Positions 12 to 11,156 of a stretch of DNA of 64,000 bases are shown piece after piece. Under the pieces are notes generated by a model. It had not been told where the DNA came from, searched no databases, and was given only the letters and a program-made list of their open reading frames with translations. The stretch comes from Synechococcus sp. Its GTDB lineage: Bacteria; Cyanobacteriota; Cyanobacteriia; PCC-6307; Cyanobiaceae. The number at the start of each line of letters is the position of its first letter. Within the stretch, counting starts at the first letter, position 1. The translations under genes and the position numbers were made by a program. The stretch covers positions 288,001 through 352,000 of the forward strand of contig JBJBCN010000002.1 of the NCBI GenBank assembly GCA_047285805.1, given 5' to 3'.

Positions 12-163
12 CAGAGGCGAGACCCTACCGGCTTTTTAGGGATGCCTTCACTCCCCAGATCACCTTTCAGTGAAGGGAAGGTGTGGTCTGGGTTGAAATG
101 CACCACGCCCACGTATCTGACAACGGCGCTTGCGGGAACCGTCTCCTGGACGTTTATGGCCTT
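12..163. repeat. ~150-bp direct repeat, copy 1 (pairs with 9931-10083)
   Basis: Hand alignment ~122/153 identical; shared blocks TCACTCCCCAGATCACC, AAGGGAAGG, GACAACGGCGCTTG. Confidence 0.9.
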
Positions 164-526
164 ACTGCCCCCTCCCTCGAGGCTACGGTCACTCTCCTTC
201 TGCGCCTAGCCATTCCCCTAACCCCAAGTGGGGGCAATTTGCCGGTGCTTCAGTTCGTCCCTACATGGGGGTAATTCAGTGCAAGATGCTCGCAAGAACC
301 CAGTCGTCAAGTGGCTGATCAGGTCTTATCTCTGGCGACAGTCTTTGACTAACTGGTCGGGATAACTCACCTACTAACTTCTCTTGATAGGCCGCCTATG
401 ATGGGGTAGGAAGAAATACCCGGGCATGAATTCTGATGTCATTTCTTAAGTACGCAGGAAATCCCAAGGAGAATATTAAGTGCAAGGGAAAGGAAATAAG
501 TAGTAATACTCACTCGCTGGAAGAAA

Positions 527-1317: not shown

Positions 1318-1476
1318 TCACGCCGCTGATCCGCAGTCGGTCATCGGTCTGCCGTCCTCTTCCCGGATGTACACGTCGCATGACGCTTCTGGCTTCTTCC
1401 AGGTACCTTGCTTGATGACTGCAACCGTTGCCCAGAGGTATAGGGCAATGAGGATGCCATCGGTGATCACGTCCAT
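1318..1476 (-). CDS. 52-aa single-TM microprotein, paralogue of 7900-8052
   Basis: MDVITDGILIALYLWATVAVIKQGTWKKPEASCDVYIREEDGRPMTDCGSAA; GGGAGGG RBS; motif shared with the second copy. Confidence 0.75.
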   Translation of the reverse strand: MDVITDGILIALYLWATVAVIKQGTWKKPEASCDVYIREEDGRPMTDCGSAA

Positions 1477-2458
1477 TCATCCCTCCCTAGCTGGCTTCAC
1501 TCTCTACGAAATGTGCTATGAATACATCTGTAGATATGCTTAGCCAGACTCGCTACGCATTCCTGTGGAGCGGCTATGAGGCGGTAACTCGACCGTCTCA
1601 TCAGCTTACGGATGATACCGACGAGTGCTCTCAGGTTTCGTTGAGCATTGGTGGTGCCCGCCGCATCCATCAATTGGGAGATACACCACGCCACAAGAAC
1701 GCGCCGACTCCTGTTGGTCCCGTTGAATGTGCATCACTCGCTTTGAGTCGCGTCCATATGCGGATGGGCCCTTCGAAGCCTTCAAAAACCTTCTCGAGTG
1801 GCCTACAGGGTGTGCGATACCCCTGAATGAGAGGGCAGACGTCCCTAGTCCATCGACTCATTCCACAGGTTCTATTGACGGCTAATTCTGATGGGTGGCC
1901 TTCCAGAGCACGATGCTTTCAAGGCTTAGAGCGCCCAGCAAAACAGCGATTCCAACCCCCAGAGCCATCGCCTGTGGATTTGCAAATTCCCAAATACCCG
2001 TCATTGATTCGCCCTCATTACCTATCAATCTTGACCCAGCCATCTGCCAGATTCATCAGTAATTCCACCTACGCTAAAGGCAGCTAGAAAAATGATAGGT
2101 GCGTCCTCATGACTCAAGATGGTACGAGAATCTATATCGCTGTCTTCATCTAGATGCCGCACATTGCCTTGAGTCTTATCTCTAAACTGCTGGTTTTAAG
2201 TCATAGCCTGAAATGTAGTCAGGCTGTGACCACCACTACGCAAGTGCCTCTCCGGAAGGGAAGACCAGATCGTGTTTTATTTGGTTTTCAACATCTTGCA
2301 ACTCTTCCCCAGCATGAAGCCTGCCTGGCTAAGAGAATGCCTCTTTGGGGTTGTATCTAACTAGTTCCTAGTCTTGATTGGAATCTTTCCGGCTGAGTAA
2401 AGAGCATTAAATGCTCTTTGCGTGTCCACTGTAGTCCCTTGTTCTTGTCTGATTTCAA

Positions 2459-2866
2459 TTAATAACAGCTGGTCTGATATGTGCTATCTGCTTCGGTCAT
2501 GGCTTCGTCGTCATTATGAAAATAGCAGCCATATATCAGGTTGATGATCCTGTTGATATCCATTTCTCTTTCTGAGGCCTCATTCCAGATTTGACCAGCC
2601 AGCTTGGAATCTCCATCCGCTATCTGCGCCTGAACGAGCGAGCGGGCTACAGAGAAATAAGATTGTCTGTCATTTCTTAATTTGCACTCCTCCTCCGATT
2701 TCACATGTCTAACCCCCCTGTAGGTCAGCGTTGTGCACGCGTCGCTTTCAGTTTTATTCCTGCAGGTGTTGTAAGCCTGACTGCGATAGGTCAGCTCCCT
2801 GCACAGATGGGGCGACGAGACCTGAGAGGCATCCTGCCTAAGGTTTCTGAAGATGAGGTTGTTCAT
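2459..2866 (-). CDS. DUF4278-type (LTYRG-repeat) protein with extra C-terminal helical domain
   Basis: LIFRN/LTYRS/LTYRG repeats; lies directly downstream of a glutamine-II riboswitch. Confidence 0.75.
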   Translation of the reverse strand: MNNLIFRNLRQDASQVSSPHLCRELTYRSQAYNTCRNKTESDACTTLTYRGVRHVKSEEECKLRNDRQSYFSVARSLVQAQIADGDSKLAGQIWNEASEREMDINRIINLIYGCYFHNDDEAMTEADSTYQTSCY

Positions 2867-2884
2867 TGTTAGCTCCTGGTTATA

Positions 2885-2944
2885 CCAGGCCCGCGTTCCT
2901 TGACCTGGGTTGAGCTGCGCCTCGAGAAGATGACGAGGTGAACG
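2885..2944 (-). promoter_or_regulatory. Glutamine-II (Downstream-peptide) riboswitch
   Basis: Minus strand CGTTCA-CCTCG..CGAGG-CGCA...CCAGGTC-AAGGAACG-C-GGGCCTGG: P1 CGTTC/GAACG, P2 and pseudoknot CCAGGTC/GGCCTGG; upstream of a DUF4278-type gene. Confidence 0.85.
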
Positions 2945-2948
2945 TTAG

Positions 2949-2962
2949 GTGGCTGTTGCTAC
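2949..2962 (-). promoter_or_regulatory. putative NtcA box at riboswitch transcript start
   Basis: GTAGCAACAGCCAC = GTA-N8-CAC, one mismatch from GTA-N8-TAC, just 5' of the aptamer (repressor-type position). Confidence 0.5.
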
Positions 2963-3305
2963 ATGGATAGTCAAGCTCTCCCTTCGCCAATGTGAAGCTG
3001 ATGAGTGCTTTTCTTAACTATCGGTGCAATGCTTCGACTCTCAAGGCGGCTTGTATGAGTGAAACTACTCATTCAATGCATCTCGCATCTTTAAGGTGCA
3101 ATGGCTCGCTTGCTTTGAATTGCGTTAGAAAGAATTCATCTGATTCCAAGAAGGAAGGCCGCCCCTCCCCGGTGGAAGAGACGGCCTACCTAGGTCGTTT
3201 ATACATGGGATGTGCCTATTGCTTGATGGACAAAAGAGAAGGTTGGAGCTTCTGATCTTGACGCCTGGCGCCGAGCTTCCAGTTGTCGGGCCTTCTTACT
3301 CCTTA

Positions 3306-3782
3306 GGGCACCTCACTGGGTGCGGATGGAGTGTCCCCCGGCAGAACCGAGATTTAGGACGTGCCCGTGGTGGATGAGAAAGCCCTGTGGAGCAGGGGTT
3401 TGCGGTCAGCAGCTCACTGATGCTTCTGAGGTGGAGTGTCGTCCAAAACGCCTCCGAGATCGATGGACCCACCATCGGTCCGATTCGAGCAGAGGGCAAT
3501 CAGGCTTTATGCGCATTGCCTTTCAACGGCAGACCTCCGATAGTCAGGACAGCGTGCCTGGAGTGAGAGGCCGCTCAGAGGCTCAGTTGAGCGTTCCCTC
3601 TTCAGACACCCGCAACGAAGTTCGGCAGCGATGCCTACCGGAAGAAGTCACACTACCAGCGAAGGAAGACTCGGTAGTCGTTCCTATTGCAACGACTACC
3701 AGCTGCGGCACCATGCGTCCATTCGGGAGGAAGACGCCCGGGTAGGAACCCCTAACCGCGGAGAAGCCACCGCGGTTTTTTC
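3306..3782 (+). ncRNA. candidate large structured RNA (~480 nt), copy A; contains a GCGA-tetraloop hairpin reminiscent of Cyano-2
   Basis: More than 10 hand-identified stems, a 3' intrinsic terminator and a 3' end homologous to 7669-7747. 5' boundary uncertain. Confidence 0.6.
3754..3781 (+). terminator. intrinsic terminator
   Basis: AACCGCGG-AGAAGCCA-CCGCGGTT then T-run. Confidence 0.8.
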
Positions 3783-3797
3783 ATGTCTACGGAAAAC

Positions 3798-4100
3798 TCA
3801 GTGCCCGGCGTGATCGCCTTCCTCGACGATGGAAATACTGACATTGCTGTGCGGCTCGCGTAGCAATGTCAGTTCCTGGTACTCAGCGGCGTCATAGGCA
3901 GCTTTCGCAGCAGCCAGGCTCTCGAATTCTTTGATCACGGTCAGATGGCACAGGTTGCCTTCTCGAACATCAGTGTTCAACTCTCGAACAAGGAAGCGTG
4001 CTCCGCATTTGGCGAGATAGGAGCCTGCGGCTTCGATGTAAGGCCCCATCCCTTCTGGGTTGGTGATTGAGCCCGCGACGTTCCAGTAGGCCTTGGCCAT
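3798..4100 (-). CDS. DUF1330 family protein
   Basis: 100 aa; GARFLVR..REG..EFESLAAAKAAY..EYQ pattern. Confidence 0.85.
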   Translation of the reverse strand: MAKAYWNVAGSITNPEGMGPYIEAAGSYLAKCGARFLVRELNTDVREGNLCHLTVIKEFESLAAAKAAYDAAEYQELTLLREPHSNVSISIVEEGDHAGH

Positions 4101-4300
4101 TTCCTTTTAGAAGCTCAGAGGATGTTTACGCGCATCTTTTGTGTCAGATGCAGCCTTCCCGCCGGATAGGTCGGTCGGCAGGCCAGCTTGCCGGTGCCGG
4201 TGAGCGTCAACGGCACCGGCGCTTGGGATTTTCGTCTCCGCACCGAATCACCGCAGGGATCTCCTTATCTCGGCGATACTCATATAAAGGCTCCCTCTAG

Positions 4301-4642
4301 ATGGCTTCCAAGTTTTTCCACGTACACCATGAGTTCCGAGCAGGGAAAGCCCAGCTGTGGTGGGAGAAGGCCACTGCGGCTATGGCTCCTGGCGGTGGCT
4401 GGGATGCCGCGGTGGCAATGAACCTTGAGGCAGGCTTCTACAACCACTCTTTCTGTCCTGTTGGTCCAGAAGGACCTGCCTTTTGCATCTGGGAGGTACG
4501 TGAGGGTATTTCCGCCGAAGACTTTCAGGAATTTATTGATGGCCCAAATGGCGTCAACTTTGGACTGGGCGCATGGATGAACATTTGCCGTGAAATCGAT
4601 GTGGACATGGCCGGTCAGACCCCCTACCCCAGGAAATTCTGA
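4301..4642 (+). CDS. conserved picocyanobacterial hypothetical protein
   Basis: 113-aa ORF with clearly protein-like content (FYNHSFCP, FCIWEVREG). Confidence 0.8.
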   Translation: MASKFFHVHHEFRAGKAQLWWEKATAAMAPGGGWDAAVAMNLEAGFYNHSFCPVGPEGPAFCIWEVREGISAEDFQEFIDGPNGVNFGLGAWMNICREIDVDMAGQTPYPRKF

Positions 4643-4819
4643 TCAATCCAATCGCATGTCTGAAGACCCATTTGGCTGCCCATTGCCCTACTGAACAAAT
4701 CTGAGATCCGAGAGGGAACTTGGCAATCATCCGTTTCGGATCACGGTGGTCTCTCGATCGTGTCCTCTGCGTTTATGGCTCTGGTCTATTTAGGTTTGCT
4801 AGGACTGGACGATGGAGGC

Positions 4820-5455
4820 ATGAAACGACGGCTCGTAGCCACAGCCTTGTTGCTGACCGCACCTCCGTTTGTAGCCGGCGACCTGGGACTGGCAGATCAC
4901 GCCCTCTCTGGCCTTGATTCCAAGAACCCCGATTTCAACCGCAAGTCGTTCCAGACCTCAATCCTGTACGGCTCGGATGGCAAAGGCAGCAGAGGGGTAG
5001 ACAAGACAGTCGCATCCTTTGAGGACGGACTGTTCAAGGTGACAACCAGCCCCAAATGTATCCAACAGATCCAGACCTAACGCTCTGGGACTTTTGTACC
5101 CAACGCGAGCTTCGACGAAAAGGGGATTACTCCTGAGCAGGTAATTTCCTTCGACTCGCATGTCGAGCAGGGCATCATTATTTTCTCGGTCTTCTACCGC
5201 GATTCAGAAGGCAAAGCTCAGCTAGCGACCCTTGGGTTCAACCAGAATGACTCGCTTGGGTTTAAGCACGCCTTCCTGAACTGGTTGTCCTCTTCCGCAG
5301 GGCAATCGAGACTTAAGCTCGTCGAACCTCCGATCGAAAAGCCTGAGGAAGCGCCCTACCCAATCCGACGCCAACCAATGCAGGGCAACTACTGGCGGCT
5401 AAGCCCCACGGGCTTGTCGATATATGCGATGCAAGCCACCACTCAGCCGGGTTGA
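4820..5455 (+). pseudogene. signal-peptide protein interrupted by one in-frame TAA (5078-5080)
   Basis: GGAGG-ATG start MKRRLVATALLL; the same frame stays open for ~124 codons after the stop. Confidence 0.65.
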
Positions 5456-6031
5456 TTCCTCGCCAGTGCCTGCTGGGCTTCTTCCATCAACAACCCGATG
5501 CACGGAGTCATCATCGCTGGTCGGTCACACTCGCTGACCTCAAAGTCTTCCGTCAATACGGCGTATGCCCTCTGGGTAGCGATTAGCAAAGCCTCTACGG
5601 AGATGCCGACCTAACCCGGCATGGTCACGCAGAACGAAGCAGACACAAGTCTTGTCTGCTCTTTTCGGTTGGTATGACATCGATAAGAGCCAACCGTGTA
5701 TGCAAACACCCGGGAGCATGTGCTCCGGGGCTCCGGCCGGCGTTTGGCCCTAACCCCTGGCTGCTTGCGCCAAATTGACTGCGGTGCTGGCGAAGGGAGC
5801 AGACAACACCCATGCCCCCTCCTCTCTGGGTAGACGCAAAGATTGCGACAGCACCAGCGCGACTTCACGTTTCTTAAACGAATCCGCCAGAATTGCCGCA
5901 CACGTTTGAAAGCCATGCCTCTCTCAAATCCAGTTGAGTTGGTTACGGCTTTTTTGGCTGCCACCATCGCCCTGTGGTTTGTGGGCCGTAGTGTCCCCTG
6001 GGCAGAACTTGAAATCGAGGGGGAAAAAAAA

Positions 6032-6547
6032 ATGACCCGCCTCGCAGCTGCGGTTCTCAGTTACTTAATTCGGCCTGGACTTGCTGCATCAATAGGTTTA
6101 CTGCTGCTCCGACTGAGCATTGGATTGTTGATGATTCACCACGGACAAGAGAAACTCGCCGATCCCCAGCAGTTTGCTTCCACCTACGTTGCTTCGCTAG
6201 ACCTGCCCTTTCCCATGTTCTTTGCCTATGCAGCTGGTTTTTCGGAGTTACTTGGGAGTTGGCTTGTAATCCTGGGTCTATTCACTCCGCTGGGGGCTCT
6301 CGCTCTCACCTCAACTATGGCCGTGGCGGCCTATCAACACATACTTACAGGTGGGCTCAATATTTATGTTTTGGAGCTTGTATTGCTTTATCTTGGAGGC
6401 AGCCTTGCGATCTTGCTGAATGGACCCGGCCGTTTCTCGTTCGATGCGGGTATGGCTCCGTTTTTGCTGAATAATTCCGTCAGTACCACCTCTACTGGAG
6501 GAAGTGGCCTGCAACCTTCCACTATTCCTATTGAAAGTCGTGAGTAG
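6032..6547 (+). CDS. DoxX family membrane protein (in frame with upstream TM peptide from 5915)
   Basis: LLLLRLSIGLLMIHHGQEKL...ELLGS...GPGRFSFD DoxX motifs. Confidence 0.9.
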   Translation: MTRLAAAVLSYLIRPGLAASIGLLLLRLSIGLLMIHHGQEKLADPQQFASTYVASLDLPFPMFFAYAAGFSELLGSWLVILGLFTPLGALALTSTMAVAAYQHILTGGLNIYVLELVLLYLGGSLAILLNGPGRFSFDAGMAPFLLNNSVSTTSTGGSGLQPSTIPIESRE

Positions 6548-6840
6548 ACGCACTGATTGCCACTGCTACCTGGGCTGCTTCCATTGGCTCAGTTGATTAG
6601 ACGTCCCGCCTAGAAGCCACAGCCGGTTTGTCTTGTACATGGACACCCCCGGCTCACCTGTCTAACTGGCAATACCGCCATCCCACAGATCAAACGCTAG
6701 GTGCAACAGCCCCATCGGCTTCACAAGAGAAGCGCCGGAAGGCTGTTGTTGACGACTGGAGGCATCCAACCGCCGCCACACGGATCGAGGAGTTCACGTC
6801 TCGTCTTCTGGAGTTATGGCAATGCCTGCGAAATCAGGCA

Positions 6841-6892
6841 ACAGCCCCCCAACAACACTTCCCGCGACTGAGCAGTGTTGTTGGGGGGCTGT
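6841..6892. repeat. perfect 19-bp inverted repeat, 14-nt loop
   Basis: ACAGCCCCCCAACAACACT / AGTGTTGTTGGGGGGCTGT. Confidence 0.95.
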
Positions 6893-6993
6893 ATGAGGTG
6901 GTGCCCCCGCTCGGACAACGCTGTCTTCATGGCGCCTTCAGCTCAGTTATGGCTTAGATCGCTTTAGCCATGCCAGGGGCTGGTGGACTGCTG

Positions 6994-7194
6994 TCAGTTC
7001 CGTGCCTGGATCAAGTCATTCAGCAGCTGCGGTATGTCCACCCCTTTGAGCCCCTCATCGGGGATTGCAGCGACTCGGAGGACGTTTGGCTGACTGGCGA
7101 CCACCTTGGCAATGGCGTGTTCGGAATCCATCGCCCGAACCGGATGGATGCTGCAGCGGTTCGAGTCGCAATAGAACACTGAATACGCCGTCAT
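6994..7194 (-). CDS. small hypothetical protein
   Basis: 66-aa ATG ORF with plausible alpha/beta composition. Confidence 0.55.
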   Translation of the reverse strand: MTAYSVFYCDSNRCSIHPVRAMDSEHAIAKVVASQPNVLRVAAIPDEGLKGVDIPQLLNDLIQARN

Positions 7195-7224
7195 ACCAAT
7201 CCAAAGAAATGGTGTGGGCCGCGA

Positions 7225-7374
7225 TGTGAGGAGTGCGACCCTGCGCTGCCGACATGACCACGGGGAGGTAAGGACCTCGTCCGGCTGGTTGGGTCAGCAC
7301 CGTTCGGTCATGGCTCAAGCAGTTCCCTGGACGCAATAGCCAAGGAGCCAGGAGGTGGGACCCAGGCTTTTTTT
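7225..7374 (+). ncRNA. candidate ~150-nt structured RNA with terminator
   Basis: Nested stems TGCG/CGCA, CTGC/GCAG, CATGACC/GGTCATG; 3' hairpin followed by T7 (7346-7374). Strand inferred from the T-run. Confidence 0.45.
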
Positions 7375-7494
7375 GCCCGGAATTCAGCTGTCCGTGATGT
7401 GATCCCGAAGGTTTCCTGTCATTCCTCCCCAACGGCTCGTGGTTGATCGAACTTGTGCGCCCACCAGTTGTGGGATCGATGTTCATAATTGAGG

Positions 7495-7747
7495 TCCTCA
7501 CACCAGGGCTGGAGTCAGGCTGAGGAGCACGAACAACGCGACTTAGCCGAATCGCAGGCAATGCTTACAAGCCAGGCTGATGGGCTCACCTATCGCGTCA
7601 CTAGCTCGGGGTTGAGCACCCTCTGTGTCTTTACGCAGAAAGGTTCGAGCTGCTGGGATCTGGAATCGGCAGCGGCAGCATGACTCCCACGGGAGGAAGA
7701 CGTCCGGGTAGGAATCTCAGACCGCCAAGAAGTCACGGCAGTTTCTT
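7495..7747 (+). ncRNA. candidate structured RNA (~250 nt), copy B, homologous to 3306-3782
   Basis: CATAAT -10-like box at 7484-7489; several hairpins; 24/25-nt identity with copy A at 7690-7714; similar terminal hairpin. Confidence 0.55.
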
Positions 7748-7899
7748 ATTGCCGCTGAACTCATCGAGACGGACGAAGTCCTCTCACGTAACGCCAATTA
7801 CGACGCATGAAGGAAAGCCACCCCCTCCTCCGATCATGGGTTGCTCTCGACCGTGTCGTCAGCGGCTATGGCTTAGGTCTGTCTAGGACTGAAAGGGGT

Positions 7900-8052
7900 T
7901 CAGCAATGGCGCATTGGGTGCTCATCCCCCTCACGGAAGAAGACCTTGCAGCATCCCTCTGCTGGAGGCTGCTTTCGCTTTGCCTTGTGATCTGCGACCA
8001 CAGTTGCCGTGACGAACAAGGTGAGCAGGATGCCGTCGGTGAGCGGCTCCAT
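7900..8052 (-). CDS. 50-aa single-TM microprotein, paralogue of 1318-1476
   Basis: MEPLTDGILLTLFVTATVVADHKAKRKQPPAEGCCKVFFREGDEHPMRHC; GGAGAGG RBS. Confidence 0.75.
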   Translation of the reverse strand: MEPLTDGILLTLFVTATVVADHKAKRKQPPAEGCCKVFFREGDEHPMRHC

Positions 8053-8598
8053 AAACCTCTCCGTGGCTATCTCTGGTCTAGCCCTGACTGGAAGCTTGTG
8101 CAGGGGGCGCCTTAACCGCAGCAGCCACCTTGGTGCAGGGGAACGACCGTTACGCCTCCAAAAACCGCGGGATCCATGAGGACACGCACTTGAAACCCTC
8201 CATTGGGATCTGCGGCAATCTCAATGGTCAATGCAACCAACTACTGACCATCCGCCTTTGAGTAGTTGAGGAGGTCAACTCGCTGAAGCTCCTTGGTTGT
8301 TGCCATCACCATTGGATCTATCGTTGGCTCAAGAATGCTTCAGCGCCTCCCCTGCGCACGAGTGTTGCTGCTGGCACCAAACTCGAGCAGTGCATCAGTT
8401 CCCTGATGGCATCCGAGTGCTGCAGTCGATCGAAATCTCCGTCAGACACTCTGAAAGTTTCGCTGCGATGCAGGACGCGATCGCCTGACTCTCTTGAAGG
8501 AGACTGGTTTTTCAGTGCATGAGGCAGCCTTCGGGTCGCCTTTTCTCTTGCCCCTTGGCATCCACCATGGGCATTCTGGCTGCAGCCGCTTATAGGCC

Positions 8599-10742: not shown

Positions 10743-10950
10743 GCTAGCCAAACAGCTCCCCGACCCACTGCTCAGAAGCGGGGAGTGTTGAGGTGGGGGA
10801 GCTTGGCACTCCCCCGTCTCGGTTCACGGGGTTCTCTCGGACCGTGTCCTCAGCGGTTATGGCCTTGGTGTTGCCGTCAGTGCAAGGGGTTGGCGCATCC
10901 ACTAGGACGAGCCTGGAGGTAAGGACCAACCAGATTCGTGGGACGCACGA
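10712..10950 (-). ncRNA. Yfr6-like structured RNA with short reading frame (tentative)
   Basis: Short frame MVLTSRLVLVDAPTPCTDGNTKAITAEDTVRENPVN followed by three GC hairpins. The resemblance to Yfr6 is from memory and unverified. Confidence 0.45.
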
Positions 10951-11082: not shown

Positions 11083-11156
11083 TCGGGGCGACAGGATTCG
11101 AACCTGCGACCTAGTGCTCCCAAAGCACCCGCGCTACCAAGCTGCGCCACGCCCCG
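11083..11156 (-). tRNA. trnP: tRNA-Pro(TGG)
   Basis: CGGGGCGTGGCGCAGCTTGGTAGCGCGGGTGCTTTGGGAGCACTAGGTCGCAGGTTCGAATCCTGTCGCCCCGA; cloverleaf, anticodon TGG, no encoded CCA. Confidence 0.98.

Follow-up and report, generated by a model that had tools for sequence, protein, structure and literature searches.

Little is known of what small membrane proteins do in picocyanobacteria. Several described proteins resemble, in one respect or another, the family reported here. MgrB, the 47-aa inhibitor of PhoQ in E. coli, has a Cys pair that serves as a redox input, and CcoQ and CcoS are accessory proteins with an N-out/C-in topology (both in the available part of PMC12648545). The accessible text of PMC5126843 reports the thiol chemistry of CP12 and two small single-helix proteins, HliR1 and Norf4, of which HliR1 is genus-restricted; that of a preprint (bioRxiv 10.64898/2025.12.20.695498) reports Ncl1450, a small single-helix protein overlapping an antisense RNA. 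Among type I toxins, Hok has a periplasmic C-terminus, according to the HokC topology in the available part of PMC8509063, and Fst/Ldr proteins have a P/D/S/T-XXX-G motif that lies inside the helix with hydrophobic residues at X (PMC8147318, in the part available). The present study concerns two minus-strand open reading frames (ORFs), copies a and b, in a 64,000-nt stretch (the window) of Synechococcus sp. (GCA_047285805.1, JBJBCN010000002.1 positions 288,001-352,000, forward strand). Coordinates are window positions unless a contig is named; G000 denotes the source genome and C2 its contig. It was found that the two ORFs belong to a selection-conserved microprotein family without an earlier name, which was seen in one picocyanobacterial subclade only.

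A family of protein-coding genes under purifying selection

Copies a and b (Table 1) have a GGAG/GGAGG-type ribosome-binding site 4-12 nt 5′ of the ATG. A preliminary description, made from the window sequence alone, took them for a duplicated and unannotated pair with strong ribosome-binding sites and a common motif including two Cys residues. Both ORFs, their sites, and the motif with both Cys were indeed found. The two proteins share 21 of 50 residues (42% identity; BLASTP expectation value (E) 4e-14). They are related, but not by a simple duplication, as the genome has five family copies, all on contig C2 and one of them broken. The other three, detected by an own-genome search, are copy c at 119583(+), copy d at 884649(+), and copy e at 285984(-) of C2. 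Copy e lies 2 kb left of the window and is broken by two in-frame stops. "Unannotated" is true of function only; public collections already list gene calls for both exact window proteins, and the label "hypothetical protein" is attached to some homologues.

Selection was measured by pairwise counts among 14 unique intact genes. The proportion of non-synonymous differences (pN) is lower than that of synonymous differences (pS) in 91 of 91 pairs, although these pairs are not independent. The idea that the DNA had diverged under purifying selection while the motif was kept is borne out between copies a and b (pS 0.77, pN 0.33) and more sharply in the best orthologue pairs, where the ratio of non-synonymous to synonymous rates (dN/dS) of 0.04-0.07 indicates strong purifying selection. 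Copy a is 96% identical to its orthologue in genome G023; of the changes between them, 8 are synonymous and 2 non-synonymous (dN/dS 0.07, p 2e-4). Between copy c and a metagenome copy, there are 16 synonymous and 3 non-synonymous changes (dN/dS 0.04, p 2e-9). The constraint is looser in subfamilies b and d (dN/dS 0.35-0.53). Copy b compared with b-type homologues in genome G036 and in a metagenome contig gives 0.36-0.39, and a near-identical b pair with 3 changes only gives 0.71. The constraint is alike in the helix, the linker, and the tail (pN/pS 0.24, 0.31, and 0.23 in five close pairs), and no alternative reading frame is open in all 14 genes. There are also short members of 30-31 aa without the Cys tail (L023, L029, and L030, in genomes G036 and G062), and the G036/G062 pair of short forms has pN 0.18 versus pS 0.41. 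The family genes are protein-coding genes under purifying selection, and they are probably translated.

The preliminary description also proposed a membrane microprotein with a conserved Cys pair, and the family-wide data agree with it. In all 29 members, the best 15-residue Kyte-Doolittle (KD) mean is 1.9-3.2, predicting one hydrophobic segment in a protein shorter than 60 aa. It is preceded by the sequence P3-L-T-D-G7, whose Asp is present in 40 of 41 full-length representatives of the 47 clusters described below. Both Cys residues are found in 33 of these 41 representatives. The C-x14-C spacing is kept in 13 of the 14 genes, and length changes are confined to the linker before the first Cys. 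Near the Cys pair, His occurs at positions 34 (24/41), 43 (16/41), and 47 (10/41), and Met at position 45 (20/41). Residues 1-6 contain no K/R and one or two D/E in 14/14 genes, while residues 21-30 contain two to four K/R, again in 14/14. Under the positive-inside rule, the basic flank of a helix stays cytoplasmic. Because of the acidic N-terminus and the basic linker, an N-out/C-in topology with the Cys tail in the cytoplasm is predicted. An AlphaFold2 model has a helix at residues 3-25 and strands at 34-36 and 45-47, with a mean predicted local distance difference test (pLDDT) score of 71.5. In this low-confidence model, the tail may be a beta-hairpin whose register brings the two Cys face to face.

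Distribution of the family

It was assessed whether homologues exist in other picocyanobacteria, a check the preliminary description had suggested. They do, in a single subclade. Profile matches were obtained in 5 of 45 genomes of the genus (one weak match was dropped), and the microprotein family is present in 4 of 401 genomes of the taxonomic family. The carriers, this genome counted, are four of the five genomes at tyrS identities of at least 89%; the fifth assembly is 86% complete and split into 230 contigs, and the rest of the taxonomic family is at 84% or lower. The four carriers have 16 loci, namely 10 intact long copies, 2 broken long copies, 3 short copies, and 1 degenerate remnant, and each carrier retains at least one intact long copy. 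With 16 loci in four related genomes under strong purifying selection, this microprotein family is a clear-cut case of lineage restriction.

A protein search yielded 47 clusters at 90% identity. An exhaustive profile search of 1.84 billion representative proteins gave 15 matches, consisting of 14 family members and one chance match to a repetitive 769-aa protein, which was rejected. No relative outside the family was detected among these proteins. In a search for longer or fused forms, one 102-aa match carries the whole motif. Eight metagenome loci were confirmed out of 26 candidates, while none of 25 candidates was confirmed among the IMG/VR viral contigs, and phage and plasmid records gave matches only at E 1 or worse. 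One locus, L013 (CAXQPR010000088.1), is labelled Salipiger bermudensis. Since its protein and a 150-nt upstream stretch match those of the G062 locus, it is probably a misbinned picocyanobacterial contig. Some matches were left out of the counts: one in genome G006 (E 0.005, positions 2-25, inside a 216-aa open frame), which faintly resembles the short forms but was missed by the short-form model; those of G022 (E 0.017, 13 residues) and L014 (14 residues); and two unrelated cluster members. A topic search of the literature found no paper on such a family, although a nameless family and small-ORF tables in supplements lay outside that search.

With 29 family members as queries, no acceptable match was obtained in the family libraries. 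The best Pfam E was 0.012, for a single member, and the best NCBIfam E was 0.12; in PHROGs, 3-6 members matched unnamed families at E 0.006. PADLOC gave no match, and the only match among Protein Data Bank sequences was at E 1.5. As for folds, no match was found with Foldseek, and the best VIA-align hit (Z 3.4) covers the helix only and is uninformative on the fold. In the ESM Atlas, the best score, 0.89, was obtained with a 48-aa cluster that has no name and may be the family itself; named clusters scored at most 0.79.

The upstream element and the probable mobility of the genes

Subfamilies b, b2, c, d, and e have a common upstream element of about 45 nt. Outside the Shine-Dalgarno sequence, the identity in these 45 nt is 0.58-0.77 in 10 of 10 subfamily pairs versus 0.32-0.40 in shuffled sequences. 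Beyond the element, the identity is mostly near chance (0.24-0.57 further upstream and 0.22-0.45 downstream). A profile of the element has four significant matches in the genome, each directly 5′ of a family ORF. Copy a lacks the element and retains only a TAGA box at the same distance. The element may act as a promoter, and a sigma-70 scan found no site near either window ORF. Most copies seem to travel as a module of about 200 bp including this element.

The gene content of the region and the tRNA-Pro(TGG) gene fit a picocyanobacterial hypervariable island. Proline-TGG is listed among island tRNAs in the available part of bioRxiv 10.1101/2020.12.28.424599. Gain, loss, and decay of copies are seen at many island sites. 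Broken copy e lies behind a gene that, judging from a motif, presumably encodes an SPFH/band-7 protein. The cassette is intact behind this gene in four metagenome contigs. In genomes G023, G062, and G008, the gene is followed by unrelated DNA, that is, these are empty sites. Copy c lies in a mosaic insert of about 1.3 kb (L010:5674-7000, corresponding to G000:C2:118674-120000) that replaces part of a response-regulator gene, which is presumed, again from a motif, to have a LuxR-type C-terminus. In G023, G036, and G062, this gene is uninterrupted and the insert is absent. From the empty sites and the copy c insert, short patches of island DNA appear to be the units in which the family genes move, duplicate, and decay. 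The SPFH gene was also considered as a fixed partner of the family; this was rejected, as three of the four genomes carrying it have no cassette there.

Table 1. Positions of family genes and neighbouring features (window coordinates, or locus coordinates where a locus is named)
Feature	Position	Strand	Description
Copy a ORF	1318..1476	-	52 aa; acidic N-terminus, hydrophobic helix 7-21, basic linker, C33-x14-C48
Copy a leader	1477..1506	-	GGAGG at 1482-1486; TAGA box ~30 nt 5′ of ATG, with a putative promoter role
Copy b ORF	7900..8052	-	50 aa; weaker hydrophobic segment; C35-x14-C50 plus extra C34
Copy b upstream element	8053..8098	-	~45 nt; putative promoter with TAGA box and ribosome-binding site
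RNA-like repeat, copy B	7669..7747	+	Neighbour outside the system; degenerate member of a six-copy family
Dispersed island repeat	7769..7886	-	~130 bp; between copy b and RNA-like copy B
tRNA-Pro(TGG)	11083..11156	-	Edge of the island holding copies a and b and broken copy e
SPFH/band-7-like gene (presumed)	L012:10033-10851	-	Directly 5′ of broken copy e

What might the protein do?

The reading I favour, tentatively and at somewhat less than even chances, is that the product is a single-pass membrane microprotein that modulates a larger membrane protein or complex via a C-x14-C thiol switch. The upstream element would drive transcription, and open translation would follow. The protein would be inserted into the membrane with the acidic N-terminus outside (in the lumen or periplasm) and the basic linker and Cys tail in the cytoplasm. 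The tail, if it forms the hairpin predicted with low confidence, could bring the two Cys together, and the helix would dock on the larger partner. A reversible disulfide or a bound metal might then alter the action of the tail on the partner. The mode of action would be as in MgrB, with Cys as the redox input, or as in CcoQ/CcoS, and the thiol chemistry as in CP12; the family is a member of none of these. Every step beyond coding, selection, hydrophobicity, Cys conservation, and modularity I infer.

The likenesses to Hok/Gef, Fst/Ldr, PetG, and MgrB were taken as leads and tested. MgrB seems to be the best functional analogy. Like the family proteins, it is some 50 aa long, with a single helix and two conserved Cys in its tail; in contrast, its Cys are periplasmic, while the family tail is predicted from charge to be cytoplasmic, and its partner is the kinase PhoQ, while no partner kinase was found for the family. 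In sequence, the MgrB profile comparison gave a probability of 9% over 11 helix columns, and no Pfam or NCBIfam match to MgrB was found in the family. PetG is likewise a small single helix; it agrees with the family in charge polarity and begins with a similar E-P-L-x-x-G. Segment-shuffle tests with PetG reached p<0.05 in 4 of 6 comparisons, which rest on an N-terminal motif chosen after the fact, and the PetG model (PF02529) matches only the true petG in the genome. Compared with PetG, HliR1, Norf4, and Ncl1450, the family has a shorter helix, a Cys-loop tail, and multi-copy, island-borne genes; an antisense RNA such as that overlapping Ncl1450 was not found in the family.

Several observations weigh against the thiol-switch modulator. 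At about 15 aa, the hydrophobic segment is short, and it is weakest in window copy b (mean KD 1.93). The first Cys has been lost from copy d of this genome. In the AlphaFold2 model, the pLDDT of the tail is in the 60s and the predicted template modelling score is 0.36. No neighbour gene is common to all subfamilies, and no locus is common to all four carriers. Two of the 12 long copies are broken and the three short copies lack the Cys tail, and thus a selfish or dispensable gene fits as well. Finally, the DNA from about -45 to codon 12 is conserved beyond the coding expectation. Four-fold sites in codons 2-12 are identical at 101 of 157 positions versus 0.32-0.41 elsewhere, while composition alone predicts 0.44 and 0.27, respectively. 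This extra conservation could reflect codon choice at the 5′ end, gene conversion between copies, or the target site of an antisense RNA.

The last possibility leads to the strongest alternative, that the protein is a type I-like membrane toxin with an Fst/Ldr-like topology and a Hok-like tail motif, controlled by an as yet unseen antisense RNA that would cover the translation start in cis, and maintained as a selfish or island-stabilising module. The size and the single helix fit type I toxins as they are described in the available part of PMC12648545, and the copies are multiple, patchy, island-borne, and often broken. The selected short forms have the size of Fst/Ldr proteins (PMC8147318, in the part available). 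Like the family, Fst/Ldr toxins (PF13955 and PF13940) have a charged C-terminus predicted to be cytoplasmic, a P-x-x-x-G motif, and frequent Trp. However, the family motif precedes the helix and has an Asp where Fst/Ldr need a hydrophobic residue, and the family Trp is inside the helix. Neither model had a match at the family loci in G000, G036, and G062, with the caveat that the Fst model reached its cut-off in no control genome, which makes this control a weak one. The LdrA profile probability was 0.6%.

Hok/Gef proteins (PF01848) resemble the family in length (about 50 aa), in their single helix, and in a Cys-containing C-terminal extension, and the family sequence C-x-V-x-I-R-x-G is locally like HokC and HokD. 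In segment-shuffle tests with five E. coli Hok proteins, 8 of 30 comparisons gave p<0.05, the lead having been chosen after the fact. On the other hand, the charge polarity is opposite. The N-side charge is +1 or +2 in Hok and -1 or -2 in the family, which has its K/R after the helix (a comparison of charge only); the C-terminus of Hok, as noted above, is periplasmic. The invariant helix Cys15 of Hok and its tail residues E31, E40, and A46 have no counterpart in the family. The Hok profile comparison gave a probability of 6% (E 0.006, 16 tail columns), no better than that of MgrB. With PF01848, no match was obtained for the 29 members at E<=10 (filters dropping most matches above 0.1) or in the genome itself, and no HOK_GEF match was found at the family loci.

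The RNA-level evidence is also mixed. The conservation of upstream sequence ends at about 45 nt, hence there is no long shared leader of the Hok/Gef kind, and, as judged from sequence, no antisense RNA was found in the family. A consensus fold of the family mRNA has 5 pairs and no compensatory changes, and no antisense terminator is common to the subfamilies. Opening the initiation region takes a median of 9.1-11.7 kcal/mol versus 11.5-14.7 in 60 of 700 background genes, and in 11 of 15 copies the closure of this region does not exceed the mean of synonymous shuffles. Thus, the initiation region is no more closed than in background genes or shuffles, as expected for an openly translated gene. 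Window copy b has the most closed initiation region (17.5 versus 12.7 +/- 3.3), which speaks for a toxin. Sequestration of the ribosome site was not found in the family copies by this opening test, a weak one in which 2 of 5 hok controls stood out. In summary, none of the type I hallmarks sought (sequestered site, covariation, and antisense terminator) was found at the family loci. Because of the conservation of codons 2-12, the short forms, and the birth-and-death pattern, I nevertheless keep the toxin as an unlikely but serious explanation.

A variant that joins the two ideas is a redox-gated membrane toxin or dormancy switch, with Fst/Ldr-like topology, a promoter-plus-gene island module of about 200 bp, and no sequence kin among described type I toxins. 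I consider it distinctly unlikely. If it were true, the cytoplasmic C-x14-C loop would couple the activity to the light-driven thiol state, and the importance of the family would be greater if it proved toxic or gated by light and redox. The family contains natural controls, namely a Cys-less copy, tail-less short forms, and broken copies, with which the redox switch and the toxin can be tested cheaply.

Cytoplasmic Cys pairs are usually reduced. This textbook point, together with the His at 34, 43, and 47 and the Met at 45 that flank the Cys pair, is consistent with a membrane-tethered chelator or sensor binding Cu(I) or Zn through C-x14-C and nearby His/Met, with no need for a protein partner. 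However, His is missing from subfamily a, to which window copy a belongs, there is no CxxC motif or shared metal-transport neighbour, and tail-less forms persist. A purely metal-binding role is rather improbable. Slightly less probable again is a precursor, in which the N-terminal helix would be a cleavable signal releasing a disulfide-looped peptide of about 27 aa with a signalling, antimicrobial, or surface role. The hydrophobic stretch is short and ends in small-residue motifs (T-V-A, V-A-A), and a disulfide would be stable outside the cell. Against this, none of the 14 genes has a basic n-region, the N-terminus being acidic; no lipobox, double-glycine motif, or shared processing or export gene nearby was found; and tail-less forms would release almost nothing. 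That the family is a neutral hitch-hiker of island DNA without current function, as broken copies, patchy loci, and the insert disrupting the response-regulator gene might suggest, is largely refuted by the low dN/dS of close pairs and by the conserved upstream element, and has very little probability left.

The RNA-like repeat next to copy b

The repeat listed as copy B in Table 1 is taken to be the "RNA copy B" of the preliminary description, and its RNA nature is presumed from sequence. It ends about 153 nt from the copy b stop, in line with the distance of about 150 bp given before. Copy A lies at 3674-3790(+), and copy B is 77.5% identical to 3702-3781. The repeat begins with a promoter-like TTGCAA-16-CAnnAT, and copy A has a strong hairpin with a T-tract. 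Rfam has no match for the repeat or for either ORF locus. There are six copies in G000 and four in G023. By BLAST, the repeat is absent from the other 43 of the 45 genomes. Carriers G036 and G062 are among these, and all that was seen in G062 is a terminator-like fragment.

The suggested co-occurrence of the two families did not hold, since the repeat is missing by BLAST from two of the four carriers and is adjacent to one gene copy only. Measured between midpoints, the nearest repeat is 0.27, 1.4, 2.3, 42, and 157 kb away from the five gene copies; in G023, the distances are 1.4 and 4.0 kb. Duplex z-scores of repeat copies A and B against four mRNAs are at chance level (-1.7 to +0.4), and the longest perfect complement between repeat and mRNA is 9 nt in 24 pairings. 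The repeat was rejected as a candidate antitoxin on these grounds. It is probably not the antitoxin of the microprotein, and both families probably just inhabit the same islands.

Other features of the islands

The ~130-bp dispersed repeat listed in Table 1 is also present at 10748-10873(-), 4668-4793(-), and 53-167(-), and has 29 profile matches in the genome. Its copies are clustered and mostly co-oriented within each cluster, and 15 of 15 near family copies are on the strand of the gene. One possibility is that the repeat is the end of an element; another is that it serves as a substrate for recombination beside tRNA-Pro. In G062:C1:2168000-2208000 (L047-L048), several full or partial copies of tRNA-Pro, together with the sequence downstream of them, are spaced a few kb apart between modules, a pattern that repeated integration would produce. 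The genome contains about eight matches, full or partial, to a multi-copy element at 3150-3610. A Glutamine-II riboswitch (55 bits) lies at 2884-2947(-), 5′ of an ORF with a weak DUF4278 match.

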